This document shows positions 1 through 12,209 of a stretch of DNA of 12,209 nucleotides, piece after piece. How positions within the stretch are numbered: position 1 is the first letter of the stretch; every line of letters starts with the position of its first letter. The notes under the pieces are model-generated. The model saw nothing but the letters and a program-made list of their open reading frames with translations. It did no database searches and was not told the origin of the DNA. The position numbers were made by a program, and so were the translations under genes. Origin of the DNA: a virus (lineage: Duplodnaviria > Heunggongvirae > Uroviricota > Caudoviricetes); the IMG/VR virus record IMGVR_UViG_2547132415_000021, positions 1 to 12,209 of that record. One strand, given 5' to 3'.

Positions 1-1362
1 ATGTTTAAACCGGAACTCCTTTCCCCGGCGGGAACGCTGAAAAATATGCGTTACGCTTTCGCTTATGGCGCAGATGCTGTTTATGCGGGCCAGCCGCGTT
101 ACTCCCTGCGTGTGCGCAACAACGAATTCAACCACGAAAATCTTCAGCTCGGCATCAATGAAGCCCACGCGCTGGGGAAAAAGTTTTATGTCGTGGTCAA
201 CATTGCACCGCACAACGCCAAGCTGAAAACCTTTATCCGTGACCTGAAACCGGTGGTGGAAATGGGGCCGGATGCGCTGATTATGTCCGATCCAGGGCTG
301 ATTATGCTGGTGCGTGAGCACTTCCCTGAAATGCCGATCCACCTCTCGGTGCAGGCTAACGCCGTAAACTGGGCGACGGTGAAATTCTGGCAGCAAATGG
401 GCCTGACCCGCGTGATCCTCTCTCGCGAGCTGTCGCTGGAAGAGATTGAAGAGATCCGCAATCAGGTGCCGGATATGGAGATCGAGATCTTCGTTCACGG
501 CGCACTGTGCATGGCCTACTCCGGTCGCTGCCTGCTCTCTGGCTATATCAACAAGCGCGATCCGAACCAGGGTACCTGCACCAACGCCTGCCGCTGGGAG
601 TACAACGTCCAGGAAGGGAAAGAAGATGACGTTGGCAACATCGTACACAAGTACGAGCCGATTCCGGTGCAAAATGTTGAGCCGACGCTGGGTATCGGCG
701 CGCCAACCGACAAAGTGTTTATGATCGAAGAAGCCCAGCGTCCGGGCGAGTATATGACCGCGTTTGAAGATGAGCACGGCACTTACATCATGAACTCGAA
801 AGATCTGCGCGCCATCGCCCATGTAGAACGCCTGACCAAAATGGGCGTGCATTCGCTGAAAATCGAAGGCCGTACTAAATCTTTCTACTATTGCGCACGC
901 ACCGCACAGGTTTACCGTAAAGCTATCGATGACGCCGCTGCGGGCAAACCGTTCGATACCAGCCTGCTGGAAACTCTGGAAGGTCTGGCGCATCGTGGCT
1001 ATACCGAAGGTTTCCTGCGTCGTCATACTCACGACGATTATCAGAACTACGAATACGGTTATTCAGTTTCTGACCGCCAGCAGTTTGTTGGTGAGTTTAC
1101 CGGTGAGCGCAAGGGGGACCTCGCGGCGGTAGCGGTGAAAAATAAATTCTCCGTTGGCGACAGCCTTGAGCTGATGACGCCGCAAGGCAACATTAACTTT
1201 ACCCTTGAGCACATGGAAAACGCCAAAGGTGAAGCGATGCCGGTCGCACCAGGCGATGGTTATACTGTGTGGCTCCCGGTCCCGCAGGATCTTGAGCTCA
1301 ATTACGCTCTGCTGATGCGTAATTTCTCCGGGGAAACCACGCGTAACCCACACGGTAAGTGA
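1..1362 (+). CDS. yegQ: U32-family peptidase-like protein YegQ (also called TrhP, tRNA hydroxylation), 453 aa, apparently complete
   Basis: ORF starts with ATG at position 1 and runs 453 codons to a stop. The protein is recognisable by recall as E. coli YegQ, including the CxxxC-containing region (GALCMAYSGRCLLSGY, TCTNACRWEY) typical of U32 proteins. The gene sits immediately upstream of cyaR as in E. coli K-12. Confidence 0.9.
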   Translation: MFKPELLSPAGTLKNMRYAFAYGADAVYAGQPRYSLRVRNNEFNHENLQLGINEAHALGKKFYVVVNIAPHNAKLKTFIRDLKPVVEMGPDALIMSDPGLIMLVREHFPEMPIHLSVQANAVNWATVKFWQQMGLTRVILSRELSLEEIEEIRNQVPDMEIEIFVHGALCMAYSGRCLLSGYINKRDPNQGTCTNACRWEYNVQEGKEDDVGNIVHKYEPIPVQNVEPTLGIGAPTDKVFMIEEAQRPGEYMTAFEDEHGTYIMNSKDLRAIAHVERLTKMGVHSLKIEGRTKSFYYCARTAQVYRKAIDDAAAGKPFDTSLLETLEGLAHRGYTEGFLRRHTHDDYQNYEYGYSVSDRQQFVGEFTGERKGDLAAVAVKNKFSVGDSLELMTPQGNINFTLEHMENAKGEAMPVAPGDGYTVWLPVPQDLELNYALLMRNFSGETTRNPHGK

Positions 1363-1392
1363 TTAATTTCGATTATTTTTCCCGGATGGAAA

Positions 1393-1439
1393 ATTCTTAG
1401 AAACCGATCACATACAGCTGCATTTATTAAGGTTATCAT
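1393..1439 (+). promoter_or_regulatory. Putative cyaR promoter: CRP half-site TCACA (1408-1412) centred about 42 bp upstream of the sRNA 5' end, and a -10-like TATCAT (1434-1439)
   Basis: Seen in sequence: TCACA at 1408-1412 with an imperfect partner half-site TTAGA at 1397-1401, and TATCAT 8-13 bp upstream of the predicted cyaR start at 1447. Established knowledge: CyaR is CRP-activated. The left half-site is a poor match, so the exact site is uncertain. Confidence 0.4.
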
Positions 1440-1446
1440 CCGTTTC

Positions 1447-1533
1447 GCTGAAAAACATAACCCATAAAATGCTAGCTGTACCAGGAACCACCTCCTTAGC
1501 CTGTGTAATCTCCCTTACACGGGCTTATTTTTT
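1447..1533 (+). ncRNA. cyaR: CyaR (RyeE) Hfq-dependent small RNA, 87 nt, ending in its intrinsic terminator
   Basis: The sequence gctgaaaaacataacccataaaatgctagctgtaccaggaaccacctccttagcctgtgtaatctcccttacacgggcttatttttt matches my recollection of E. coli CyaR. It ends in a CCC..GGG hairpin followed by a T6 run, and lies between yegQ and ogr as in K-12. Confidence 0.8.
1507..1533. other. P2-type attachment core (attR), 27 bp, coinciding with the 3' end of cyaR
   Basis: Positions 1507-1533 read aatctcccttacacgggcttatttttt. Its reverse complement AAAAAATAAGCCCGTGTAAGGGAGATT is what I recall as the 27-bp P2 att core, and ogr (the gene next to attR in a P2 prophage) follows immediately. Recall-based; needs alignment to P2 attP. 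Confidence 0.5.
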
Positions 1534-1596
1534 ACGTACAACAAATTGAAATAAAAGGATTTATTTCTGGTCACGTCCACATATTGACCACATCGA

Positions 1597-1621
1597 CAAA
1601 AAAGCCCCTCGACTGAGGGGC
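1597..1621 (-). terminator. Rho-independent terminator downstream of ogr (minus strand)
   Basis: Hairpin gcccctc-gact-gaggggc at 1604-1621. On the minus strand it is followed by a T6 run (the plus-strand A-run at 1598-1603), about 14 nt after the ogr stop codon. Confidence 0.6.
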
Positions 1622-1634
1622 TTCCTGTTTCTAA

Positions 1635-1853
1635 TTACATCCACATAATTTGCTGCCCTGACGGCAACGGGTGCGGCCTTACGGCGTGGACTTCTCCCGG
1701 CTTCACGATGTATCGCTGCACCGACTCATAAGTGATGAACGTGGCGCTGCAATTCACGTTCTGGCACTGGTGATAACGCTCTTTTGTCGTGTCAGTGATA
1801 TAGCGACTTGTACGCGCATGTGCGGCATGCTGGCATAAAGGACAATGAAACAT
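1635..1853 (-). CDS. ogr: Ogr, P2 late-gene transcriptional activator (C4 zinc-finger), 72 aa
   Basis: Protein MFHCPLCQHAAHARTSRYITDTTKERYHQCQNVNCSATF... has the CxxC...CxxC zinc-finger pattern and matches my recollection of P2 Ogr/OgrK. The start at 1853 is preferred over the upstream in-frame ATG at 1916 because a strong SD (aagaggtg) sits about 7 nt upstream of 1853 and Ogr is 72 aa. Confidence 0.9.
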   Translation of the reverse strand: MFHCPLCQHAAHARTSRYITDTTKERYHQCQNVNCSATFITYESVQRYIVKPGEVHAVRPHPLPSGQQIMWM

Positions 1854-1934
1854 CGCGAGCACCTCTTCCGGTTTTGTTGATGGTGCCATTTTAGTTAATT
1901 TATCCTTATAAAACAAACAGATAAAACAAAAACA

Positions 1935-3098
1935 TCACTCATCACCTTCGGTTTCGTACTCCACATCAGAAAGCCTGACCTCAAGCTCCAAGGACGTCGT
2001 GAAGCCGCTATTATTCAGAAAATGTGTCACCTTAGTGATTGTCCAGTCCTGCTCGTCTATGACGCGCTTAAAGCCTGACACTTTGACCGGCGTTTCCGTG
2101 TAAATATCTGCCCGACCGGTAGCCAGGCTGATGGAGAACTCCGCAACGCCCCGTTGCAGTTTATCCCACTTCGCCTGAGCGGCGCGCATGGCCTGCGCTT
2201 TCGTGGCATATACCGTGGTCAGGGCAAAAACATTGTCAGCCTCACCGGCCATGTATTCACCTTCGCGCGCTTCCGGTACTTTTGACGCTTTCTTCTGCGT
2301 GACCGGTTTCGCTTTCGGGTGCTCCAGTGCGCGCAGGTGTTTCTCTTTCTTTTTGCGTTTCAGTTTTACCTTCTGCTTTTGCGGCTTCGGGTCTTTGGTG
2401 TGTAACCACTTTGCCGTTACGCCTGTGTAGGCTCCACGGTCAGCAATCGCAAAATGATGACGGTCGCCGTCGCTGCGGGTGATGGTAATCTGCGGGATTT
2501 TTTTACCGCTGGCCGTCACCCCCTGCCCCGCTTTGAGAAACAGCAGTTTTCCCATTTTTACCGACACCTCACCGCCGTTGCGTTCAGCAAGACGGGTCAG
2601 GAATTTCGCATCGGACTCCTGCGACTGGTCGATGTGCGGGATTTTAATTCCGGCCAGTGACGGAGCGACACTGGCTTTCAGCCTGTTACGGGAGGCTATC
2701 TCCTCAACAATCGCACCGAGCGTGGTGTCATGCCAGGAGCCTTCACGGCGGGAATTGAGCGTCCCGCGAAAATCTGCACTCCGGGCGCGGATGGTAACCA
2801 CATCCGGCGCGCCCCGGTGTTCAACCTCATCAACGGTAAATTTCCCTTTGCATACCAGGGCAAAACCTTTCCAGCCGATATACACCGTCAGGACAGCGCC
2901 ACGAACCGGCAGCCCGACCTGCCCGTCGGCATCGTTCAGTTCAATATCAAGCTGGTCAGCCTCAAAGCCCCGGTTATCCGTCAGGGTCATGCTCATCAGA
3001 CGGTCGCTGATATTGCCGGTAATATCCCTGCTGTCGAGCATCAGCATGTAATCCGGCGTCAGCGTACTGCCTGCATCAAATGTCAGCGCATCCGGCAT
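1935..3098 (-). CDS. D: P2 gpD-like tail protein (phage late control D family), 387 aa
   Basis: 387-aa ORF in the position and order of P2 D, between U and ogr. Its start ATG overlaps the U stop (TAATG at 3096-3100). Full length, unlike the truncated yegZ remnant of K-12. Confidence 0.88.
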   Translation of the reverse strand: MPDALTFDAGSTLTPDYMLMLDSRDITGNISDRLMSMTLTDNRGFEADQLDIELNDADGQVGLPVRGAVLTVYIGWKGFALVCKGKFTVDEVEHRGAPDVVTIRARSADFRGTLNSRREGSWHDTTLGAIVEEIASRNRLKASVAPSLAGIKIPHIDQSQESDAKFLTRLAERNGGEVSVKMGKLLFLKAGQGVTASGKKIPQITITRSDGDRHHFAIADRGAYTGVTAKWLHTKDPKPQKQKVKLKRKKKEKHLRALEHPKAKPVTQKKASKVPEAREGEYMAGEADNVFALTTVYATKAQAMRAAQAKWDKLQRGVAEFSISLATGRADIYTETPVKVSGFKRVIDEQDWTITKVTHFLNNSGFTTSLELEVRLSDVEYETEGDE

Positions 3099-3577
3099 TA
3101 TCCCGCCCCCGTCATACCTGTGAATCTGGTCGCCATACTGCCGGCCTTACCGATGAGCGATTCCGCCTGTTTACCGATATCGCCATAAAGCGCGGCCAGT
3201 GATTCATCAACGCGGGTGAGCGACAGCGTAAAATCAATTTTCCGGGGTGTGCCGTCTGCAAAGAAAATACTCCCTGTTTCACTCACCTTACTGATGACAT
3301 ACATGCCGTAAATCATGCCGGTGCCATCCAGCAACGGCCACGCCCGACCTTCCTCTGCCATCAGCCTGAGCGTGGTCATCGTCAGCTTGCCGCCGGTCAG
3401 TTCGGGATAAAGCACACCGGCCAGCGTGATGTTTTCCTCACCCACACCGAGAAACTGAAAGGCATCCCGTTTGCCGATACGGGAATTTGACGGCCAGCGA
3501 TAATCTGATTCACGCTGCATGGTCTGGTGTGGCAGCGTCTGGCGCATAAAAACAAACATACCTAACGCGAGCATCAT
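3098..3577 (-). CDS. U: P2 gpU-like tail protein, 159 aa
   Basis: 159-aa ORF between T and D. A strong SD (ggaggtg) lies 7 nt upstream of the ATG at 3577 and overlaps the T stop codon. Confidence 0.85.
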   Translation of the reverse strand: MMLALGMFVFMRQTLPHQTMQRESDYRWPSNSRIGKRDAFQFLGVGEENITLAGVLYPELTGGKLTMTTLRLMAEEGRAWPLLDGTGMIYGMYVISKVSETGSIFFADGTPRKIDFTLSLTRVDESLAALYGDIGKQAESLIGKAGSMATRFTGMTGAG

Positions 3578-3591
3578 TTTTCGTCACCTCC

Positions 3592-6039
3592 TTAACCGTC
3601 ATGCATCATGCTGGCACGGGCGCGCGCACGTTTATCCCGCTCGTATTTTTCGAGTGCATCCTGTAACTGGCGGTCGAGCTGTGTCCCCGGCGCAGTACCA
3701 CCCGTCAGGCTGATGTGATATTCGTTTTTACTCTGGTCCACATAAGAGCGGCCAGCCGGTGCCGTAACCGGCTGATAAGCCTGATAGCCTGCATAAGAGC
3801 TGGTCGCCGGAATATAACCACCGCTGCCATACGTGGTGGCTTGAGTTCTGGCGGCGGTCTGGTCAAGTGTGTCTGACTCTTTGTTGATAACACCGAGTTT
3901 TTCCAGTACCCAGTCAATTCCGCTGCGCAGTTTGTTGAACGCATTAAGCGGCAGCATCAGCGCGTCAGCCAGTGCCTGCCCGAACATGACGCCAGTATCA
4001 CGGCAACGGTTCAGGGTGTCCTGGGTGGCTTTGACCGGGGCAATCAGGTTTTTAAACCACTGCCACGCGGCCTGTAACTTTTCGCCCAGCCAGTCAAACA
4101 CCGGCTTAAGTGGCGTGAACAGTTCCCCCACCGGCGCAAATGCCGCTTTCAGCCCTTCCATCACACCGCCAAAGAATGCGCTGACAGGCTCCCAGTATTT
4201 ACGGATAAGCAACGCCCCGGCGACAATGGTGGCCACCACGGCCACAACCGGCCAGCTAATCGCCCCGATGGCGGTCATAACAGCACTGCCAACCGTCGTG
4301 AAGACTGCCCCCATTGCGCCTGCTGCCGCGATGATGGCATTAATGCCGGTGATAACCGGCCAGGCTACAAGACCAATTGCACCGATGATGCCAGTAAGCG
4401 CCAGTGCGCCACCGACAATGAGGCCGATGGTTGACGCCAGTGATTTGTTTTTCTTGATCCAGCCGTCGAGTTTTAACACATACTTTGTGGCCGTCTGAGT
4501 GAGCTTACGCAGCGCGCCTTCCTGCTGGTCAAACAGGTCAGTCCCCACCGCCTCATAAGCGGACTGAAACTCCTTAAAGTCACCGCCGAGGTTGTCCTGC
4601 ATGATATTTACCAGCTCGGCGGTCTTCCCGTCTGAGGCTTTAAACGCAGCGGTCAGTTTGTCCAGCTTTCCGGTTGAGGCGGCAGTCATCAACACGGCGG
4701 CGGCTGAGCTGGCCTCCTCCCCGAAAATAGTTTTCATGTATTCAGCCTGCTGGGCAGTACCGAGCCGGTTTTTCTCAAAACTGGCCTGCATTTCTTTCAG
4801 AATGGTAAATACTGGTCGAGTATTCCCTTTACTGTCTGAGGTTTTCACGCCAAGCTCTTTCAGTGCATCCCATGCTTTTCCCGTCGGTGCCTGCAGGCGG
4901 CTTAACACGGCACGGCTTCCCGTCCCCGCCATTGAACCGGTAATTTTTGCATCATGCAGCGCCCCGACCATTGCGGCGGTTTCTTCAATGCTGACACCAG
5001 CATTTTTTGCCACAGGTGCGGCATAGGTCAGCGCATCGCTCATGCCATCAAAATCGGCGGCGGTTTTGTTCATCGTCATGGAGAGAACATCCCCGATATG
5101 AGCAACCTTATCGTTTGAAAGCTGAAAGGCGGATTTCATCCCCATCAGCAGGGCGGCGTTTTCTTCCATCGTGCGACGGTTCGCCAGCGCCATATTCAGC
5201 GTGACCGGCGTTGCCGCCTGAATGGCATCAACATCCCCACCGGCTTTCGCAATAATAATCTGCGCACCGGCTGCATCATCTGCCGAGGCTGCGGTATTGT
5301 CGCCGAGCTGGCGCGCCTGCTTGCGTAGTGCAGCCATTTCGGCGGAGTCTTTTGCCACACCGAGCACAGCCTGCAATTCTGAGTTTTTCTGCGCAAACTC
5401 ATAACCGGGCATCAGCAACTTAACTCCGGCCATCGTTCCCGCAGCAGCAATCCCCACACCGGCAGCGCCCACTGAGGCCATATTTCCGGCCAGTTCCTTT
5501 CCGGCCTGATAACGCTGTTTTACTGCGTTAAGTTTTGCCTGTTGTGCACTGACACGCGCCAGCGCGTCACGCTGACGGTTAAGCTGTGCGGTGGTTTCAC
5601 TGATACGGTTTTTCAGTCCCTGCTCATCATGTGCAAGATTGCGGGTATTAATTCCCACAGCGGCCAGTTCCCGCTGCTGGCGTTTAATGGAATCTGTCAG
5701 GCGGTTATATTTCGCCTGTAAGTCCTCCGCCGCACGCTTTGCGGATTCCAGCACTTTCGCCTGAGCACGGGTCGGACGTTCAGTGTTTTTAAACTGTGTG
5801 GCAAGGGCTTCGGCTTCCTGCCGTGCCTTTTCAAGTGCATGACCAGTCACGGCAAGCTGTGCGCTGGTCTTGCGAAATCCCTCAATACGGGATGCGTGAC
5901 CGTTCAGCTCGCGCAGTGATTTTTGTGTTTCCCGGATATCCCCCGACAGCGACTTACTCGCTGTACGGATGGATTTAAACGGGCGGGATGCCTGGTCAAC
6001 AGCCCTGAGCAATACCTGTAATTTTACATTGTTACTCAT
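3592..6039 (-). CDS. T: Tail tape measure protein (P2 gpT-like), 815 aa
   Basis: 815-aa ORF with a long Ala/Gln-rich, coiled-coil-like N-terminal half and hydrophobic Gly/Ala-rich segments, typical of tape measure proteins. It lies immediately downstream of the E/E' frameshift chaperone pair, and its start overlaps the E' stop. Confidence 0.9.
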   Translation of the reverse strand: MSNNVKLQVLLRAVDQASRPFKSIRTASKSLSGDIRETQKSLRELNGHASRIEGFRKTSAQLAVTGHALEKARQEAEALATQFKNTERPTRAQAKVLESAKRAAEDLQAKYNRLTDSIKRQQRELAAVGINTRNLAHDEQGLKNRISETTAQLNRQRDALARVSAQQAKLNAVKQRYQAGKELAGNMASVGAAGVGIAAAGTMAGVKLLMPGYEFAQKNSELQAVLGVAKDSAEMAALRKQARQLGDNTAASADDAAGAQIIIAKAGGDVDAIQAATPVTLNMALANRRTMEENAALLMGMKSAFQLSNDKVAHIGDVLSMTMNKTAADFDGMSDALTYAAPVAKNAGVSIEETAAMVGALHDAKITGSMAGTGSRAVLSRLQAPTGKAWDALKELGVKTSDSKGNTRPVFTILKEMQASFEKNRLGTAQQAEYMKTIFGEEASSAAAVLMTAASTGKLDKLTAAFKASDGKTAELVNIMQDNLGGDFKEFQSAYEAVGTDLFDQQEGALRKLTQTATKYVLKLDGWIKKNKSLASTIGLIVGGALALTGIIGAIGLVAWPVITGINAIIAAAGAMGAVFTTVGSAVMTAIGAISWPVVAVVATIVAGALLIRKYWEPVSAFFGGVMEGLKAAFAPVGELFTPLKPVFDWLGEKLQAAWQWFKNLIAPVKATQDTLNRCRDTGVMFGQALADALMLPLNAFNKLRSGIDWVLEKLGVINKESDTLDQTAARTQATTYGSGGYIPATSSYAGYQAYQPVTAPAGRSYVDQSKNEYHISLTGGTAPGTQLDRQLQDALEKYERDKRARARASMMHDG

Positions 6040-6459
6040 TCGTGTTTCCGCTTCGCCGGAGCGCCTTTTCGCGCCATGTGATGAGTTCGGTCAGGCTCAT
6101 GGGATACAGTTCTGATGGCGGCCAGTGAAATATCACTGCCACATCCGCCATCAGGTCATCGACCGACAGATTTTTCGGGAACGTTACTGCACCGAGTTCG
6201 GCGACAAAAAACCGACCACCTTACCGGCCAGCGCCACAAGGTCAGGCAGTTCCAGCGCGGCGACTTCCTGCTCGGTCAGCATCGGTGCCGTCATGCGCGG
6301 CAGCACCTTAATCAGTGCATCGACTTCGGAGTTCGCGACCGCTGCCAGACTGACACCGCGCAGCGTCCCGGCACTGGGTTTCATCAGCGTGACCTGTTCG
6401 ATAACCTGCTCACCACGTTTGACCGGATTGTCCAGGGTAATGACGTTTTCTTTGTTCAT
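6032..6459 (-). CDS. E+E': gpE+E' tail assembly chaperone made by programmed -1 ribosomal frameshift (142 aa predicted)
   Basis: Hand translation: after a -1 slip on the heptamer T-TTT-TTG (minus strand, 6205-6211) the reading frame continues ...GFFVAELGAVTFPKNLSVDDLMADVAVIFHWPPSELYPMSLTELITWREKALRRSGNTNE to a stop at 6032-6034. That gives 142 aa, the length I recall for P2 E+E'. Confidence 0.75.
6184..6459 (-). CDS. E: gpE tail assembly chaperone (zero-frame product), 91 aa
   Basis: 91-aa ORF directly upstream of T. It contains the slippery heptamer near its 3' end, the arrangement analogous to lambda G/GT and conserved in P2. Confidence 0.85.
   Translation of the reverse strand: MNKENVITLDNPVKRGEQVIEQVTLMKPSAGTLRGVSLAAVANSEVDALIKVLPRMTAPMLTEQEVAALELPDLVALAGKVVGFLSPNSVQ
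6205..6211 (-). promoter_or_regulatory. Slippery heptanucleotide TTTTTTG, the -1 programmed frameshift site of E/E'
   Basis: Minus-strand sequence ggt-ttt-ttg at codons 83-85 of E. The -1 frame downstream is open for 57 further codons and ends overlapping the T start. Confidence 0.7.
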
Positions 6460-6515
6460 GGTTTTCTCACTTCTGAATCGTGGTTAACCGGTCAGCCAGG
6501 CTGACCGGATGAAAA

Positions 6516-7034
6516 TCACAGGCCGATATTGCGGCGGTGTTGCTCCAGCCGGTCGACGCCGTTCACCTTCTCAATCATGTTGATGGTGTCGATTTCGACC
6601 AGCTCCTTACCGTCCATCGTCAGCCGGAAATAGGTGCAGACCACGGAGATTTTCGACTCGGTGTCTTCTCCCTGTTTACCCTCGCCGGTGTCGATTTCTT
6701 TCTGACGTCCACGCATGACCACCTCGACGGCCACCGTTTCGCCGGTATCGTCGCGCTGGTAAGAGCCTGCAAAACGAATCGGCACAGCATCCACACCGGT
6801 TGCGGCGTAAAGCTCCCAGATAACCGAATCCGGGAAGCCCCCGAGCGACCACTCCATTGACAGCGCATCGTCATCAAGGCCGAGGTCTACCGGTGCGCTG
6901 CCGTTCATCCCCGCACCGCGATAGTTTTCGAGCTTACGGGTCAGTTTTGGCAGCGTGACGGACTTTGCAACGCCCTGATAGCTGTAGCCGTTCAGAAAGA
7001 CGTTCATTAACTTGAGTTTGCGCGGCATTGCCAT
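6516..7034 (-). CDS. FII: Tail tube protein (P2 gpFII-like), 172 aa
   Basis: 172-aa ORF immediately downstream of the sheath gene. SD aaggag lies 8 nt upstream of the ATG at 7034. Order and length match P2 FII. Confidence 0.9.
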   Translation of the reverse strand: MAMPRKLKLMNVFLNGYSYQGVAKSVTLPKLTRKLENYRGAGMNGSAPVDLGLDDDALSMEWSLGGFPDSVIWELYAATGVDAVPIRFAGSYQRDDTGETVAVEVVMRGRQKEIDTGEGKQGEDTESKISVVCTYFRLTMDGKELVEIDTINMIEKVNGVDRLEQHRRNIGL

Positions 7035-7046
7035 CGGTCAGGCTCC

Positions 7047-8237
7047 TTAATTGCTGTTAACCGAGGTGACCAGATTTGCCAGATATTTATCGGTAATACG
7101 CTGGCGCAGGGTCAGGTTTTCGAGAGGAGGCACCGGGGTATAGTCGTAGTCGATATACAGTTTTCCGGCCTTGAGGGTTTCCGCATCGTTGGATTCTTCG
7201 CTGAACCAGCAGGTCGCATCCACGATATAGCCGTTTGTTTTCAGCTCACGGAATTTGGCATTGATGCCGTCAACGATGTCGCGAATCAGCGTTGCGGTGA
7301 TGGGCTTGTCCACCGCCCACATGTGCGCCTCAGCCATCGTGTCGGCCAGCACCTGCGCGGTGCGGGTGTAGTTTTCAAAGAGGAACAGCGGGTCATCGGA
7401 GCAGGTACGGTTACCCCAGAAGCGGAAACCGTCGCGGCGAATCAGCGTTGTGACGCCTGACTCGTTAAGCAGGTCAGCATCGGTGCCGGACTCCTGCAAA
7501 TCCCAGAATACAGATGCGCTGATGCCGGTAACACCGTTCACCCCGACATTGGACAGCGTTTTATGCCAGCCCTGCTCTTGGTCGATTTTAGCGCGCAGAC
7601 CCAGCGCACGGGCGGTGGCATACGCGGTGGCGGTGGTGCTGCTGACCGTATCCCATGCGAGGAAATCCGGCCAGATGACCATCAGCTCACGCTGGCTGAA
7701 ATTCTGGCGGTAGGCTTTCACCTCGGAAATGGTTTTGCAGCCCCATGCGCTGATATACCCGAAAGCGCGCAGCTTCTGACAGACTGATGCCAGTGCAACA
7801 GCAACCTCTTTGGTGTCCAGTCCCGGCACGCCGAGAATACGCGGTTTAACACCGGTTACCGACTCCGCCGCCAGCAGGGCTTTCAGTCCGGTGTACTGAC
7901 CGTTTTCGTCGGTGGTGCCGATGATATTGGAAACGGTCTGCGCGAGTTTCGTTTCCTCGTCTTCGCCGGTGCCGTCTTCCACACGCACGACAACGGTGAC
8001 CGGTTTTGACTGGTCGGCGATAGCCTGCAACGATGCCGCCAGCGTGCCTTTTTTACCGGCCTTTGCAATCGCGCTCTGCACATTGGTAATCAGCACCGGT
8101 TTATTGAGGGGGAAGATTTCCGCATCCGCATCGCTGGCCGTGCAGACCATGCCGACAATGGCCGTGGATACAGTGGAAATGACACGGGTGCCGTCGTTAA
8201 TCTCCAGCACCTGCACGCCGTGATGATAGTCACTCAT
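7047..8237 (-). CDS. FI: Contractile tail sheath protein (P2 gpFI-like), 396 aa
   Basis: 396-aa ORF, first gene of the FI-FII-E-T-U-D block. Length and position match P2 FI. Confidence 0.9.
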   Translation of the reverse strand: MSDYHHGVQVLEINDGTRVISTVSTAIVGMVCTASDADAEIFPLNKPVLITNVQSAIAKAGKKGTLAASLQAIADQSKPVTVVVRVEDGTGEDEETKLAQTVSNIIGTTDENGQYTGLKALLAAESVTGVKPRILGVPGLDTKEVAVALASVCQKLRAFGYISAWGCKTISEVKAYRQNFSQRELMVIWPDFLAWDTVSSTTATAYATARALGLRAKIDQEQGWHKTLSNVGVNGVTGISASVFWDLQESGTDADLLNESGVTTLIRRDGFRFWGNRTCSDDPLFLFENYTRTAQVLADTMAEAHMWAVDKPITATLIRDIVDGINAKFRELKTNGYIVDATCWFSEESNDAETLKAGKLYIDYDYTPVPPLENLTLRQRITDKYLANLVTSVNSN

Positions 8238-8332
8238 CCGTTTAACTCCGTGGTTAATGGGTGCAACTATTTTCTGTTGGGCAGTGCATGAGACGCTATT
8301 TGACCTGACTGGTCAGTGGATGAAACAACAGA
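8238..8332 (-). promoter_or_regulatory. Putative late promoter region upstream of FI (PF-like), containing the dyad TGACC-N5-GGTCA at 8301-8315
   Basis: Seen: an inverted repeat tgacctgactggtca centred about 71 bp upstream of the FI ATG. Established knowledge: P2 late operons start at Ogr-dependent promoters with an upstream dyad. I could not find a clean match to the TGT-N12-ACA element I recall, so this is tentative. Confidence 0.3.
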
Positions 8333-8364
8333 TAAAGAAAAGGCGGGCAATCAGATTGCCTGCC
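8333..8364 (-). terminator. Rho-independent terminator ending the cargo/upstream transcript ahead of the FI promoter
   Basis: 10-bp stem ggcgggcaat/attgcctgcc (one G-U pair) with loop cag at 8342-8364. On the minus strand it is followed by TTTTCTTTAT. Confidence 0.5.
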
Positions 8365-8469
8365 TTGATTTGTGCTCACTCATTTTCCGACTGACAGTTT
8401 ACATAGCCAAAACGCTATCAAATCTGACAGCCTGCTTTGAGCGAGGAACGGACTAAATGCTCATCTCAG

Positions 8470-8505
8470 CGGTCAAAGGATATTTTTCTTTGACCGTTCT
8501 CTTTA
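8470..8505. other. Perfect 9-bp stem hairpin (cggtcaaag / ctttgaccg, 9-nt loop) just downstream of the SIR2-like gene stop; the U-rich tail is on the plus-strand side
   Basis: Seen in sequence at 8470-8496, followed on the plus strand by ttctctttat. On the minus strand (the gene strand) there is no U-tail, so it may stabilise the mRNA 3' end or block antisense read-in rather than act as the main terminator. Confidence 0.35.
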
Positions 8506-8516
8506 TAGAGAAAAGA

Positions 8517-9425
8517 TTATCTGTTAGTTTTATTCTGAATATCTTTGATTACATCGAGGTAATACTCTTTTTCCTTCCCTTTGAACACTAACCCGAAATT
8601 ATGATTAATTATAACCCCAACACTTTTCAAAAGATCGATTTTTGGTTTGGAAGCAGCGTCATTATAATAATAACCAGGGATGTAATATGTCACCTCATAT
8701 TGCAAGCTTATTTTCTTTGCAATTCTAGTCCTTTCTCTAAATGTAAGTAACCACCAAAGATCAATTTCAACAAAATCCAAATTCAAGCCTAAGATATATA
8801 CATCCTTAGTAAAAAAATCATCGATCCAGCTATTACCAATATCATTTGCTTGCAACCGCTTTGTAAGCGGCTCGTTGAACGATTTATTGGAATACTGACT
8901 TCCGGTAGTTGTATACCCCCGCATGCTTTGCAAATAACCACTGTAATGCTCATAGCCAAGAATTATTGAGCTTGGGTTATTCACTGCTCCATGTATATGC
9001 CATATGTTTTTGTTTTTCACCTGATAATGCCTGAAAATATTGTATTTACTTTCTTTTATTACACCTTCATTTTTTAAATCATCAGGCTTGATGCTGTCGT
9101 CTAAACAATATTCAAAAGCTAAATCATAGTTTGTTGTTAAAATATTATTGCATTCTAATCCAATTATTCTTTGATGGATTTCATTTGGCTTTATTGTGTT
9201 TATCTTTGATGCGATGGAATCTTTTATTTTATTTTCTGAAAATCCATTCACTTGCTTATTTGAAATATTAAAATAAATCTCTTCATAGGCTAGTGGAAAT
9301 GGTTTTTCATGCGTGTCAATTTTTATCCCATATGTTGCCCCTAGGTTATTTAAAACATCAAGCCAAGAATTTCCATTTGTAATATTATTTATGCCATTTC
9401 CAATAAGCAGTGAATAATCGCGCAT
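8517..9425 (-). CDS. Standalone SIR2-like (ThsA-type / SIR2_2-like) putative NAD+-hydrolase, 302 aa; candidate antiphage effector
   Basis: N-terminal Gly-rich motif LLIGNGINN (compare ThsA AGAGLS), TTNYD motif at residues 97-101 (ThsA has WTTNYD), and IWHIHGAVNNPSSIILGYEHY at 141-161 (compare ThsA YKMHGDVEHPSEAVLIKDDY). No SLOG or other sensor domain. SD aaggga lies 5 nt upstream of the ATG. Gene is strongly AT-rich compared with the flanking phage genes. Confidence 0.8.
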   Translation of the reverse strand: MRDYSLLIGNGINNITNGNSWLDVLNNLGATYGIKIDTHEKPFPLAYEEIYFNISNKQVNGFSENKIKDSIASKINTIKPNEIHQRIIGLECNNILTTNYDLAFEYCLDDSIKPDDLKNEGVIKESKYNIFRHYQVKNKNIWHIHGAVNNPSSIILGYEHYSGYLQSMRGYTTTGSQYSNKSFNEPLTKRLQANDIGNSWIDDFFTKDVYILGLNLDFVEIDLWWLLTFRERTRIAKKISLQYEVTYYIPGYYYNDAASKPKIDLLKSVGVIINHNFGLVFKGKEKEYYLDVIKDIQNKTNR

Positions 9426-9549
9426 TTCTATCCCTTATGTTAGATACATTTTTTACACTATACTACTGATATTTATTCTAATACCAGTCATTGGCATGTT
9501 CGACACCGATAAGTTTGATCTTGCCTAGCAACTTATGTTTTCGAATATG

Positions 9550-9557
9550 CCCCCCCC
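9550..9557. repeat. Homopolymeric C8 tract (G8 on the minus strand) in the spacer upstream of the SIR2-like gene
   Basis: Seen: atgccccccccatg at 9547-9560, about 125 bp upstream of the SIR2-like start codon, in otherwise AT-rich sequence. Confidence 0.9.
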
Positions 9558-9655
9558 ATGAAAGTCTTAGACAACTATACCTATTAATATCCTACAGAGT
9601 GCTCTTCGTAGTCAGAAAATGAGAACGAGATAACATCAGTTCATTGGTTTACTCC

Positions 9656-9892
9656 CTACGCAGTTTGTGAGTTAGCACCGTCCGCTTCTGGCACGTAGGG
9701 GACCAACCAGCTGGTCCTCAGGTCCGATATGAGCGAGAAGCTAAAATTCGCAGTTGTTCCCAAAGTCGATGGAGGAATTTTTAACATTACAGTGTATTTA
9801 TCAACGGGAAGCAGGTCACTCTCTATGGTTCTCGCATTATTTGTTAACAAAATAACATATTCTTTTGCTTCATCGATAGTATTGAATATCAT
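9656..9892 (-). CDS. Hypothetical small ORF (78 aa) in the spacer between the two cargo genes; uncertain whether real
   Basis: ATG at 9892 with a weak SD-like GGGAA 3 nt upstream. The N-terminal half (MIFNTIDEAKEYVILLTNNARTIESDLLPVDKYTVML) has cargo-like AT-rich codon usage; the C-terminal half runs through a GC-richer patch with inverted repeats and looks less protein-like. Confidence 0.2.
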   Translation of the reverse strand: MIFNTIDEAKEYVILLTNNARTIESDLLPVDKYTVMLKIPPSTLGTTANFSFSLISDLRTSWLVPYVPEADGANSQTA

Positions 9893-9980
9893 AAGTTCCC
9901 ACTTAACATCGATATCTGCGGTAACTGATTAACACAAAGAAATTCATCCAATAGCAGAGAATAACTTTGAGTTTTAGATT

Positions 9981-10823
9981 TTAAAAAACCTTCAGCCATA
10001 ATGTTTCGAGCCTTGTGCCAATCACGCCTTTTCCAATGTTATCCAGCCCTCGAACCATTGCGTATAAGCCACCTAATATTTGAATCCCTTCCTTTACACC
10101 TAAAGACGAATAGTCAAAAGTTGGAAAGAGGACGTAATAAGACATAATTACCCCAATACAACACTCGAAAACTCCATAGGAAAGACGGAAATTTTCTCTG
10201 TACCAAAATAGTATGAGTCCTAAAACGGGTAAACCCATCATTGTCCCCCAAACTGTAATGGTAGATACCAGTACTTCCATATTGGAATAGACGATGTTTG
10301 CGACTAGAGAAGCAAGCCCGCCGAGCACAAAACTGGCTTTTAGGTAACGCTTTTGAGATGAAACAGCTTTTTCTGCTTTCTCTTCTATTTCTTTATTTAG
10401 AAAATCGCCTTTGCTTTCATTTATAAACTCAATGCCAGTCATAGATGTAATATTCCGACTAGCAAGAAAATAAGACAAGGCACGATCATTGGTCACGACG
10501 CAAGGAACTTCTTCTCCTTGCCGTTCTGCGTAAGAAATAGCTATTCGAGCAATATCAAAGTCTGCCCCAGTCAAACGCTGAGCATTTCTATCGGATTGGA
10601 AGATGTCGTTTTTTATTTTTTCAGGCGCTTCAACTATGAGCACACCAGCGGGAATTGACGAGGCCACTAAATCAGTAATATCTGACCATTTGTTGCTTTT
10701 CCCTCTATATGAAAGCTCATGCATCACAGCTCTTGGGATAACTAGCTTCCGATTTCCAGCTCTAGACAATATCTCCGGATGCTGCAATAAAACATTAGTA
10801 TCTATTATGTATCTACTTGGCAT
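9981..10823 (-). CDS. PIN-domain nuclease fused to a C-terminal 3-4 helix transmembrane region, 280 aa; candidate antiphage effector
   Basis: N-terminus YIIDTNVLLQHPEIL resembles the PhoH2/YlaK-type PIN domain, with candidate acidic residues D8, E36, D89/D91 and D113 (VVTNDRAL). C-terminal hydrophobic segments ASFVLGGLASLVANIVYS, VLVSTITVWGTMMGLPVLGLILFWY and YGVFECCIGVIMSYYVLFPTF. SD aggga lies 6 nt upstream of the ATG. AT-rich. Confidence 0.8.
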   Translation of the reverse strand: MPSRYIIDTNVLLQHPEILSRAGNRKLVIPRAVMHELSYRGKSNKWSDITDLVASSIPAGVLIVEAPEKIKNDIFQSDRNAQRLTGADFDIARIAISYAERQGEEVPCVVTNDRALSYFLASRNITSMTGIEFINESKGDFLNKEIEEKAEKAVSSQKRYLKASFVLGGLASLVANIVYSNMEVLVSTITVWGTMMGLPVLGLILFWYRENFRLSYGVFECCIGVIMSYYVLFPTFDYSSLGVKEGIQILGGLYAMVRGLDNIGKGVIGTRLETLWLKVF

Positions 10824-10839
10824 AAGCTATCCCTGATAC

Positions 10840-10870
10840 CTTAATTTATCAAATAAAACGGTATGTAAAC
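10840..10870 (-). promoter_or_regulatory. Possible sigma70-like promoter for the PIN-TM gene (-35 TTTACA at 10864-10869, -10 TAAATT at 10843-10848 on the minus strand)
   Basis: Seen in sequence only. The spacer is 15 bp, which is suboptimal, so this is a weak candidate. Confidence 0.2.
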
Positions 10871-10970
10871 ATATAAAACATAACTTCACAACTCACTTAT
10901 CAATGCAAGTTTCCCAACCAGGCAAGCCATGTGCTTAGATATCTGACCTAACGTTTCTAAATTGATGAAT

Positions 10971-10994
10971 GTCCGCTATTGGCACGGAGCGGAC
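10971..10994. other. Hairpin gtccgct-N10-agcggac about 60 nt downstream of the G stop codon
   Basis: 7-bp perfect inverted repeat with a 10-nt loop. There is no clear U-tail on either strand, so its role (weak terminator or RNA processing site at the end of the H-G operon) is unclear. Confidence 0.3.
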
Positions 10995-11054
10995 TGTCAG
11001 ATTAGGCTTTACTCTGTGCCATAGATATGTAAGCTCCCACCAGAGCTCATACAC

Positions 11055-11582
11055 TTATTGCGGCATTTCCGGCCATTCAGGATTTGCAGTATCCACACGA
11101 CTGACAAGAACGCTGTAGCGTTCCCATGCCTCCAGTCGACTGCGCTCCTCATCTGTTGCCATATTCAGCCTGACAGCGCGCTCCAGCGGCAAAATCAGGG
11201 ATTCGGCTTCGGAAAGCAAAGTTGCCTTTTGTGATTCTGCCAGTTGCTGCTGTTCGTCTGCCGTATAAATCCGCTTAATCACTGCACCATCCTTAAACAT
11301 CCATTTACCTGAGTCATCAGCACGCCGGTTGGCAGTAATATCAGGAACCTCAACGACGCTAAAACCTTCAGGATTAAGCGTTGAAGCATCTCTGGTGATG
11401 GCGACAATAATATTATTTTCATCATAAACAATCTTTATTGTCTCTGGCTGAAAATTACTTACTTCCTCATACCAGTTTTTTCCGTCTTCGGACCATAACC
11501 AGATAACATCAAAATTCTTTGTTAGCTGATATTGCTCTTTTGTTTTTGGATTACCTGACTTAATGTTCTTTAAATGCTGCAT
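11055..11582 (-). CDS. G: Tail fibre assembly protein (P2 gpG-like), 175 aa
   Basis: 175-aa ORF immediately downstream of the tail fibre gene (H stop at 11586-11588, G start at 11582). Length and position match P2 G. Confidence 0.88.
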
Positions 11583-11585
11583 AAC

Positions 11586-12209
11586 TTATACCTGCGCAAC
11601 GTTATACCATGTGCCATTGATGTATTTTTGTATTGGTCTGAATACTGCCGGATCATCGCCATCAACTTCACCGACAATACCAAGCCCCGTAATTGCATGG
11701 CCTGATTTTTCATACATCACGCCTTTCTGCATGGTCTGCACAACACGTGTGCCAAGTCTGATATCTCTCACATAGCGGGAATCAAAGTTACCGTAATCCG
11801 AGGGATTAACACGCCCCGTAATATTTATGGTCTTATTACTTTGAATGCTTCCGGAGACAAAGCGCATAACATGGACGTTATTAGCATAAACATCTAGATT
11901 ACCATCGCCATTTTGTTTAAATCCGGTGTCGCTATCACCAAGAACAATAGAGTTCCCACCCAACGCGTTATTCGTGCCAAGTGCCAGCCCGCCATCAATC
12001 CTGGCACCATTACCAACAGACACAACTCCTGTTCTTAAGTTGATACCGAATGGCCTTAATGGCCCGATATCCCCATTTTCACCCTCATTTTCTCGTGTAG
12101 GGATGATATACAGGTTTTCTTCAGAACGGCGAAAAATAGCACCAAAAGATGAATTAAATATCCTCAGTGCATTGACTGTAGATATTTTTACTTCACTGCT
12201 GAAAAGGGC
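11586..12209 (-). CDS. H: Tail fibre protein (P2 gpH-like), C-terminal portion only; the 5' end lies beyond the window
   Basis: The reading frame stays open on the minus strand from the window end (12209) to the stop at 11586-11588 (hand-translated), so the GTG 'start' at 12023 in the ORF track is internal. The Gly/Asn-rich repetitive C-terminus is typical of tail fibre tips. Confidence 0.85.

Follow-up and report, generated by a model that had tools for sequence, protein, structure and literature searches.

Two candidate one-gene abortive-infection cassettes in tandem at the Z/fun hotspot of a P2-like prophage

Locus and cargo island

The window analysed here, the whole stretch of 12,209 nt (positions 1 to 12,209 of IMG/VR virus record IMGVR_UViG_2547132415_000021), represents the right end of a P2-like prophage adjoining the gene trhP (yegQ; 1-1362, plus strand). 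It carries a cargo island, flanked by genes G (tail fibre assembly) and FI (tail sheath), with two genes, one encoding a SIR2-like protein of 302 amino acids (aa) and the other a 280-aa protein that combines a PIN nuclease domain with transmembrane (TM) helices (PIN-TM). This island is probably a tandem of two independently mobile one-gene cassettes in the P2 Z/fun hotspot, each of them a candidate abortive-infection gene, and the two genes would adjoin through the accumulation of cassettes at palindrome-bounded sites rather than through any joint function.

The borders of the island match GenBank entry AJ512683 ('P2-EC58 proviral Z-region'), which confirms the position between G and FI, at the P2 Z/fun site, proposed by an earlier interpretation made from the sequence alone (hereafter the sequence-only reading). 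Homology to the P2-EC58 backbone ends at 8454 and resumes at 10962, so that the cargo proper occupies 8455-10961 (about 2.5 kb), while the remainder of 8238-11054, which had been read as an insertion of about 2.8 kb, is conserved P2 intergenic DNA. The AT richness attributed to the insertion was borne out: its G+C content is 0.363 over 8455-10961, dropping to 0.26-0.42 across the island, versus 0.559 for the tail genes D to FI, although the contrast is smaller on the other side, where G and H themselves have a G+C content of 0.43-0.44. The coding G+C of the two cargo genes differs by about eight points (0.319 versus 0.402). The G+C drop, the Pfam domains, the Shine-Dalgarno sequences, the backbone comparison and the border matches argue that the island is a real and not a chance feature.

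Of 5426 complete E. coli genomes, 1017 have different cargo between the same borders, and one (E. coli ZH177, L001) has the full island. The prophage of that strain is heavily deleted, with FI truncated and fused to a fragment of D, and with V and the terminase gene partial, yet both cargo genes are intact. Variable accessory cargo at the G/FI site, as the sequence-only reading had it, is well founded. The study to which that reading had credited it, Rousset et al. 2022, analysed the A/Q (old/tin) hotspot instead; it was Vassallo et al. 2022 who named the fun locus as the second P2 defence hotspot ('defence hotspot 2'), and a 2024 preprint treats it as well known (bioRxiv 10.1101/2024.10.15.618418).

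On the minus strand the genes follow each other in the order G, PIN-TM (9981-10823), SIR2 (8517-9425) and FI, with 555 nt between the two cargo genes, and both are oriented as the late tail operons. Each has a ribosome-binding site of its own, as had been predicted, namely AGGGA 5-6 nt upstream of the ATG (10830-10834 and 9431-9435). The 8-mer AGGGATAG directly before the start codon is common to both, despite the different origins of the cassettes. The leaders, 160 nt before PIN-TM and 254 nt before SIR2, are conserved with the copies of the cassettes found elsewhere, and the SIR2 promoter is presumed to lie within the leader 9426-9679. This leader also contains a homopolymer of eight G (9550-9557, minus strand), where the Klebsiella copy of the cassette reads GGGGGAG; it could represent a slippage-prone tract in a regulatory region.

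A third open reading frame (ORF) of 78 aa between the cargo genes was considered as a further component, and it is probably not a gene. Its product had no match in Pfam, PADLOC, NCBIfam or PHROGs, tblastn across all loci matched only L001 and L040, it is absent upstream of the Klebsiella SIR2 gene, and at least its last third is read through the junction repeats described below. None of the three ORFs had an informative match in NCBIfam, and those in PHROGs were weak and partial only.

Cassette borders and palindromes

An imperfect inverted repeat of 33 nt encloses the island (8421-8453 and 10971-11003) and corresponds to the left and right repeats annotated in P2-EC58. Nilsson et al. 2004 reportedly described the P2 Z-region as variable and, as their title indicates, proposed site-specific recombination there. 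The core of the repeat is a 24-nt palindrome, GTCCGCT-N10-AGCGGAC, with two types of loop, A' (containing CTGTGCCAGG; YTGTGCCARR) and B (containing CCTCGCTCAT; YYTCGCTCAW). In the orientation of the genes the order is G, A' (10994-10971), PIN-TM, a degenerate B (9745-9722), 18 nt, a second A' (9703-9680), SIR2, B (8453-8430) and FI (Table 1).

Each cassette was found elsewhere without the other gene. The SIR2 cassette (8434-9703) has 97.5% DNA identity to a Klebsiella variicola chromosome (L047) that carries no PIN-TM, and the PIN-TM cassette (9680-10985) has 97.6% identity to the right end of a Mu-like prophage (L040, with Mu gp48, an invertible tail-fibre segment and a Gin-like invertase) that carries no SIR2. 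The junction A' copy sits exactly where the two homology tracts meet. Altogether, ten of the 11 readable breakpoints (8 of the 9 from comparisons between cassettes, plus the two backbone edges) fall in or at the three palindromes. On the FI side they lie at 8434 (L047), 8433 (L039), 8432 (L045) and 8439 (L068), with the backbone edge at 8454; at the junction, at 9680 (L040) and 9703 (L047); and on the G side at 10985 (L040, inside the palindrome) and 10994 (L068, where the homology has its exact start), with the backbone edge at 10962. The sole exception is 9510, the end of the comparison with Dickeya, which is the most diverged (82% identity).

The A'-cargo-B order and the B-18 nt-A' doublets recur, whatever the orientation of the cargo gene, in the Klebsiella array, the Mu-like prophage, Dickeya, E. 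coli genomic islands and plasmid p720632_72. In three P2 Z-regions that hold different cargo, the outer palindromes were present as expected, although in one of them only A' scored above the match threshold, and there was no internal doublet. The doublet is present in 1188 of 5426 E. coli genomes at one to three places each, a copy number too low for a repeat of REP/BIME type, which reaches tens to hundreds of copies per genome. The exact 18-base A' pattern was found on at least 120 viral contigs, where one or two would be expected by chance (an estimate that assumes the collection size); 86 of them lack both the G and the FI gene of P2, and conservation of the loop extends past the specified bases.

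The hairpins said to bracket the island proved to be a mixed set. The G-side palindrome folds well (z -3.9), a hairpin at 8468-8498 folds better still (z -5.7), and the P2 backbone contributes a terminator-like hairpin at 8340-8366, but the FI-side and junction copies are degenerate and fold no better than shuffled sequences, whereas intact doublets elsewhere reach z -4.4 (single strand). Between the stop codon of G and the A' palindrome (11020-11050, minus strand), GGGAGCTTACATA lies within a small CTCTG...CAGAG palindrome which presumably resembles the centre of ERIC elements, and the G-side border would share GGAGCTTACATA with them; this likeness is to the ERIC-PCR primer sequences, and nothing here relies on it.

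Palindrome-bounded cargo of other kinds was met at several loci. The Klebsiella variicola array (L047, 5724-12775) consists of about five units whose cargo is SIR2, an HNH_5 protein, GATase with AraC, a 299-aa protein and an ASCH protein; PADLOC had no match for the four non-SIR2 proteins, the AraC gene being left out. The same palindromes bound cargo on E. coli plasmids of 72-131 kb (L068 and L071; p720632_72, 17146-24596), beside genes for a BCCT transporter and a DUF2254 protein. At that site p720632_72 carries other cargo, including a 200-aa tyrosine recombinase (Phage_integrase, 1.1e-17), which was considered as the enzyme acting on the palindromes and rejected, being absent from all other loci. 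One 269-aa protein without a family match recurs as cassette cargo, beside PIN-TM in L040 (7200-8009) and on a plasmid in L071 (9643-10452), the two copies being 95% identical.

Tentatively, the 24-nt palindromes may be the recombination sites of an unrecognised, integron-like gene-cassette exchange system in Enterobacterales, with SIR2-only and PIN-4TM as two new single-gene immune effectors spread by it. Units of the form A'-cargo-B, of about 1-3 kb and often with a single defence-like gene, would then be moved precisely and stacked in tandem, passing among the P2 Z/fun site, other prophages, plasmids and chromosomal arrays via a recombinase or a structure-specific mechanism. No description of the wider cassette network or of its tandem-array logic was found in the literature searched.

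Another explanation, possible though not one that we favour, might be that the palindromes are only terminators or insulators of independent 'moron' genes, the breakpoints clustering there by chance or through recombination that favours short shared sequences. It would suit the weak covariation of the stems (5 compensatory cells, equalled by 48 of 500 shuffles), the lack of any recombinase found consistently near the palindrome loci and the partial degeneracy of the copies in the window. However, the palindromes have no T-run, the YTGTGCCARR loop is conserved across P2, Mu-like, plasmid and chromosomal contexts, nearly all readable breakpoints are confined to three 24-nt motifs, and the polarity from A' to B is constant whichever way the cargo gene points.

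Table 1. Coordinates of the cargo island, its borders and the neighbouring genes in the window
Feature	Position	Strand	Remarks
SIR2-only gene, 302 aa	8517-9425	-	One complete SIR2 NADase-like domain, no sensor domain
PIN-4TM gene, 280 aa	9981-10823	-	N-terminal PIN_4 (residues 5-121), long linker helix, C-terminal 3-4 TM helices
Outer A' palindrome GTCCGCT-CCGTGCCAAT-AGCGGAC	10971-10994	-	Cargo start on G side; folds with z -3.9; part of arm 10971-11003
Degenerate B palindrome TTTAGCT-TCTCGCTCAT-ATCGGAC	9722-9745	-	End of PIN-TM cassette; equivalent copy in L040, 7080-7103
Spacer, 18 nt	9704-9721	-	Between degenerate B and junction A'; spacing as in the B-18 nt-A' doublets of L047
Junction A' palindrome GTCCCCT-ACGTGCCAGA-AGCGGAC	9680-9703	-	Start of SIR2 cassette; 20 of 24 bases identical to G-side copy
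B palindrome GTCCGTT-CCTCGCTCAA-AGCAGGC, degenerate	8430-8453	-	Cargo end on FI side; part of arm 8421-8453
Non-coding leader of SIR2 cassette	9426-9679	-	AGGGA 9431-9435; G8 tract 9550-9557; 97.5% with Klebsiella L047
Hairpin inside SIR2 cassette	8468-8498	-	19 nt past SIR2 stop; z -5.7; conserved in L047
Terminator-like hairpin of P2 backbone	8340-8366	both	Between cargo and FI, in stretch conserved in P2-EC58
ORF, 78 aa, between cargo genes	9656-9892	-	Straddles cassette junction; probably not a gene
G, P2 tail fibre assembly	11055-11582	-	Upstream flank of cargo; RefSeq annotation; Caudo_TAP
FI, P2 tail sheath	7047-8237	-	Downstream flank of cargo; annotation; Phage_sheath_1
H, partial	from 11586	-	
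FII	6516-7034	-	
E	6184-6459	-	
T	3592-6039	-	
U	3098-3577	-	
D	1935-3098	-	
ogr	1635-1916	-	
CyaR (RyeE) small RNA gene	1445-1530	+	Rfam 100.7 bits against gathering score of 47; between trhP/yegQ and ogr

All prophage genes of the window lie on the minus strand (according to the RefSeq annotation of a near-identical locus, with Pfam labels). As the CyaR gene is situated between trhP/yegQ and ogr, the prophage adjoins cyaR; this gene, outside the island, is the sole Rfam match in the window, and no Rfam family was found within the island.

Encoded proteins

Both cargo genes encode proteins of the kinds that had been recognised in the sequence-only reading, a SIR2-like protein and a PIN-TM protein, and their domains are typical of abortive-infection effectors. 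The 302-aa protein matched Pfam SIR2_2 at 2.8e-10, above the gathering score, and its AlphaFold2 model (pLDDT 92) is a single domain in which the whole chain is SIR2. The closest structural relatives of this model are all immune NADases. In a profile alignment to ThsA through the TTNYD and WHIHG motifs, N99 corresponds to ThsA N112 and H145 to ThsA H152, and both residues are invariant across 93 homologues, as would be expected of a catalytically competent SIR2 NADase. The family is large, with 1444 matches. The protein is predicted to be a bare SIR2 NADase domain of the ThsA/KomC type that depletes NAD+.

The 280-aa protein matched Pfam PIN_4 at 3.3e-11 over residues 5-121, above the gathering score. 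The putative acidic active-site residues D8, D88 and D113 are invariant in an alignment of 18 members and at least 90% conserved in one of 83 members, in agreement with a PIN endonuclease. Three clear hydrophobic segments and a weaker one follow, and the charge distribution fits a topology with both termini inside. The best-conserved motifs of the protein, WYRExFRLSYGxFE and LYxMVRGLDNIGKG, lie within the TM module on its predicted cytoplasmic face. The protein is predicted from these features to be a candidate membrane-tethered RNase.

The PIN-TM family comprises 109 clusters at 90% identity. When the membrane module alone was used as query, a word-indexed search returned only 3 proteins, and an exhaustive one recruited at least 442 cluster representatives, most of them about 280 aa long with the module at the C terminus. 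Of 114 distant relatives found with only the TM module as query, 85 still scored for PIN_4, which shows, at the level of sequence comparison, that PIN and the membrane module form an ancient and stable fusion. The module is absent from Pfam and PHROGs, and the whole protein had no match in PADLOC. Short proteins of 119-216 aa that consist of the module by itself (L036, L037, L043, L044, L031 and L042; P0230-P0232) were met as well, some of them on viral contigs, and in one 332-aa protein (L041) the module stands behind a different, unannotated N-terminal region.

Genomic contexts of the two genes

The sequence-only reading had taken the two genes for one two-gene system. Co-occurrence across unrelated genomes does not bear this out, as the genes are usually found apart and were together only in one prophage lineage and on one plasmid contig. 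Four diverse PIN-TM members were placed in their genomes: in Chlorobaculum the gene lies beside Gabija on a region with conjugation genes, resembling an integrative and conjugative element (ICE), in Aeromonas it is alone, in Pseudomonas it adjoins a reverse transcriptase gene, and in Halarcobacter it adjoins RES and DUF6414 genes; none of the four has a SIR2 neighbour. A scan of one genome per species added 24 loci from many phyla. At PIN-TM loci outside this E. coli lineage, tblastn and a SIR2-family hidden Markov model found SIR2 in 0 of 29, and all-against-all clustering of ORFs within 4 kb, at 30 loci, revealed no conserved neighbour of any kind.

SIR2, in turn, was found without PIN-TM in seven contexts. 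The Salmonella homologue is alone on an ICE-like region with conjugation genes, that of Proteus stands behind phage tail genes and is followed by an unrelated 374-aa gene, that of Vibrio lies among unrelated genes near a Lamassu-type LmuB_C gene, and those of Dickeya, Planctobacterium and Klebsiella are alone. The genes downstream of SIR2 in Vibrio (280 aa) and Proteus (374 aa) were considered as hidden relatives of PIN-TM and proved unrelated on testing. In Vibrio parahaemolyticus (L007, 8506-10891), CTD7, MC3 and LmuB_C genes are situated three genes past SIR2 in a Lamassu-like arrangement, beside a phage-type integrase. Both genes of the island occupy accessory positions in prophages.

In one E. 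coli isolate (L062, 5399-6307) SIR2 is split into parts of 84 and 216 aa, whereas PIN-TM is intact, as is the remainder of the prophage. Our conclusion is that two autonomous units came to lie side by side only recently.

Proposed function and alternative explanations

The product of each cassette is most likely a self-contained accessory protein, carried by the prophage on behalf of its host, and these proteins would most probably be abortive-infection or phage-exclusion factors. SIR2 may be switched on upon infection, probably, by analogy with its closest structural relatives, through assembly into an oligomer or filament, and would then hydrolyse NAD+, starving both phage and cell. The PIN endoribonuclease would be cytoplasmic and held at the inner membrane by the bundle of 3-4 helices; this module may sense perturbation of the envelope or membrane during infection, or may oligomerise, and would then license RNA cleavage that halts translation. 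A rival placement is that PIN-TM attacks incoming nucleic acid at the membrane. As judged from sequence, a defence function is plausible for each gene.

Several observations weigh against two independent defence genes. Neither protein matches a validated single-gene defence model: PADLOC v2 gave only partial N-terminal matches for SIR2 (to ThsA, LmuA and PDC-S25) and none for PIN-TM. A SIR2 domain without a sensor has no obvious means of detecting infection, and a scan for sigma-70-like consensus promoters upstream of either gene gave nothing above chance level. On the side of defence, a PADLOC scan of the 139 ORFs situated up to 5 kb from PIN-TM (22 loci) picked out GajA, two retron-type reverse transcriptases, MADS components, AriA-like ATPases and Cas1, which suggests a link with defence genes, although these are raw counts, not set against a background rate. 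As for independence, all 17 E. coli and Shigella loci with this PIN-TM allele also hold SIR2, the island being at least 99.7% identical. Sixteen of these loci represent a single near-clonal P2 prophage lineage, and the seventeenth (L068) has the tandem, 99.9% identical, on a plasmid backbone of E. coli (BCCT transporter, DUF2254, RelB); since it is present on both backbones, the pair must have moved as one block at least once.

One or both genes might also serve an end other than defence, as addiction or stabilisation toxins, in lysogenic conversion, in counter-defence (e.g. by degrading an NAD-derived signal), or might be decaying passengers. We regard this as rather unlikely. Besides the failure to match validated defence models, it may draw on the neighbouring palindrome-bounded cassettes, where 9 of 10 cargo proteins have no PADLOC match and most are uncharacterised, on the non-defence cargo that P2 hotspots also carry (PMC9122126; bioRxiv 10.1101/2024.10.15.618418), and on the TM-only versions of the membrane module found on viral contigs. 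However, both ORFs are intact and their catalytic residues show little or no variation among hundreds of diverged homologues, which indicates that both genes are under purifying selection; moreover, the structures closest to SIR2 come exclusively from immunity proteins, and Gabija and retron-type reverse transcriptases near PIN-TM, as well as a Lamassu-type LmuB_C near the Vibrio SIR2, point to defence.

The least probable explanation, a single undescribed anti-phage system in which SIR2 and PIN-TM are both needed, e.g. as a sensor or primary effector and a membrane effector, could appeal to the adjacency and common orientation of the genes, to a pair that is intact in nearly all E. coli and Shigella contigs read (the split SIR2 being the one exception), to the block transfer between plasmid backbone and P2 hotspot, and to the lack of a sensor in SIR2 itself, but it is improbable in view of the PIN-TM loci elsewhere, none of the 29 with SIR2, the solitary copies of either gene, flanks included, that are about 97.5% identical in DNA, the cassette-boundary doublet and long gap between the genes, the isolate in which SIR2 alone is disrupted, and a co-occurrence that amounts to one near-clonal lineage. 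Given that shared lineage and the block transfer, a functional link within this lineage is retained at the same low probability.

If put to the test, the island would provide two compact, uncharacterised candidates for one-gene immunity in a cargo seldom met in E. coli. With the bare SIR2 domain comes the question of what switches on a sensorless effector, and the PIN nuclease brings with it a conserved membrane module of at least 442 protein clusters that Pfam, PHROGs and PADLOC lack. The palindrome-bounded cassette architecture, seen well beyond P2, is the most interesting lead: if true, shared palindromes would explain how hotspots fill, and searches from A' to B would offer a sequence handle for harvesting accessory and defence genes.

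Comparison with known systems

Searches with PADLOC v2 and NCBIfam and of the literature assigned neither protein, nor the pair, to a named system, as the sequence-only reading had suspected, and the accessions of both proteins were not found mentioned in the literature searched or in the DefensePredictor supplements. Among systems with SIR2 effectors, ThsA of Thoeris is a SIR2-SLOG NADase; the present protein has no SLOG or Macro domain, and its PADLOC match to ThsA covers profile positions 23-178 of 478. Thoeris also requires the adjacent TIR gene thsB, and the island has no such gene and no TIR domain match. KomC of Kongming is a 264-aa SIR2 NADase, but here there is no KomA or KomB, and this SIR2 is alone in most genomes. 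More generally, neither the island nor the loci in Klebsiella, Dickeya and Planctobacterium contain the partners that define SIR2-HerA (Nezha), Lamassu and Kongming (HerA, LmuB and KomA/KomB, respectively).

Closer in organisation are DSR1 and DSR2, the sole-Sir2 protein (about 440 aa; bioRxiv 10.1101/2024.12.27.630466) and lactococcal AbiH, which likewise are single genes whose effector domain is SIR2; for sole-Sir2 (bioRxiv 10.1101/2024.12.27.630466) and DSR2, hydrolysis of NAD+ has been demonstrated. All of these carry an additional sensor region, whereas the 302-aa protein is the SIR2 domain only. It was not assignable to AbiH, as Pfam PF14253 scored 27.5 bits against a cut-off of 30.9, over profile positions 114-244, and PADLOC gave no AbiH or DSR match.

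PIN-TM shares the PIN endoribonuclease fold and conserved acidic residues with VapC toxins and with DS-3 and DS-5 of DefensePredictor (PMC13092281). DS-3 is a one-protein PIN defence without an antitoxin (PMC13092281), but its PIN domain is divided between the N and C termini and its description includes no membrane module, whereas PIN-TM has an N-terminal PIN_4 domain (SMG6/Nob1/Dis3-like) and a module of 3-4 helices. In contrast to VapBC, PIN-TM has no antitoxin gene, there being no ORF between the A' palindrome and the PIN start and no conserved neighbour, and the match to Pfam PIN (PF01850) has an E-value of 0.13.

The cassette borders invite comparison with integron attC sites and Acinetobacter pdif modules, which also are short, promoter-poor units with imperfect palindromes, arranged in tandem arrays of fixed polarity and shared by phages, plasmids and chromosomes. 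As read from the sequences, however, the motif has neither the GTTRRRY/RYYYAAC boxes of integrons nor the XerC/D half-sites of pdif, and no IntI or consistent recombinase was found near the loci. The nearest relatives of the island as a whole are the P2 Z/fun cargoes themselves (hotspot 2 of Vassallo et al. and the Z-regions of Nilsson et al.), with which it shares the G/FI site, the conserved border sequences and the inverted repeats annotated on either side, and from which it differs in its cargo and in combining two tandem cassette units with an internal doublet, where the other P2 Z-regions examined have one unit each.

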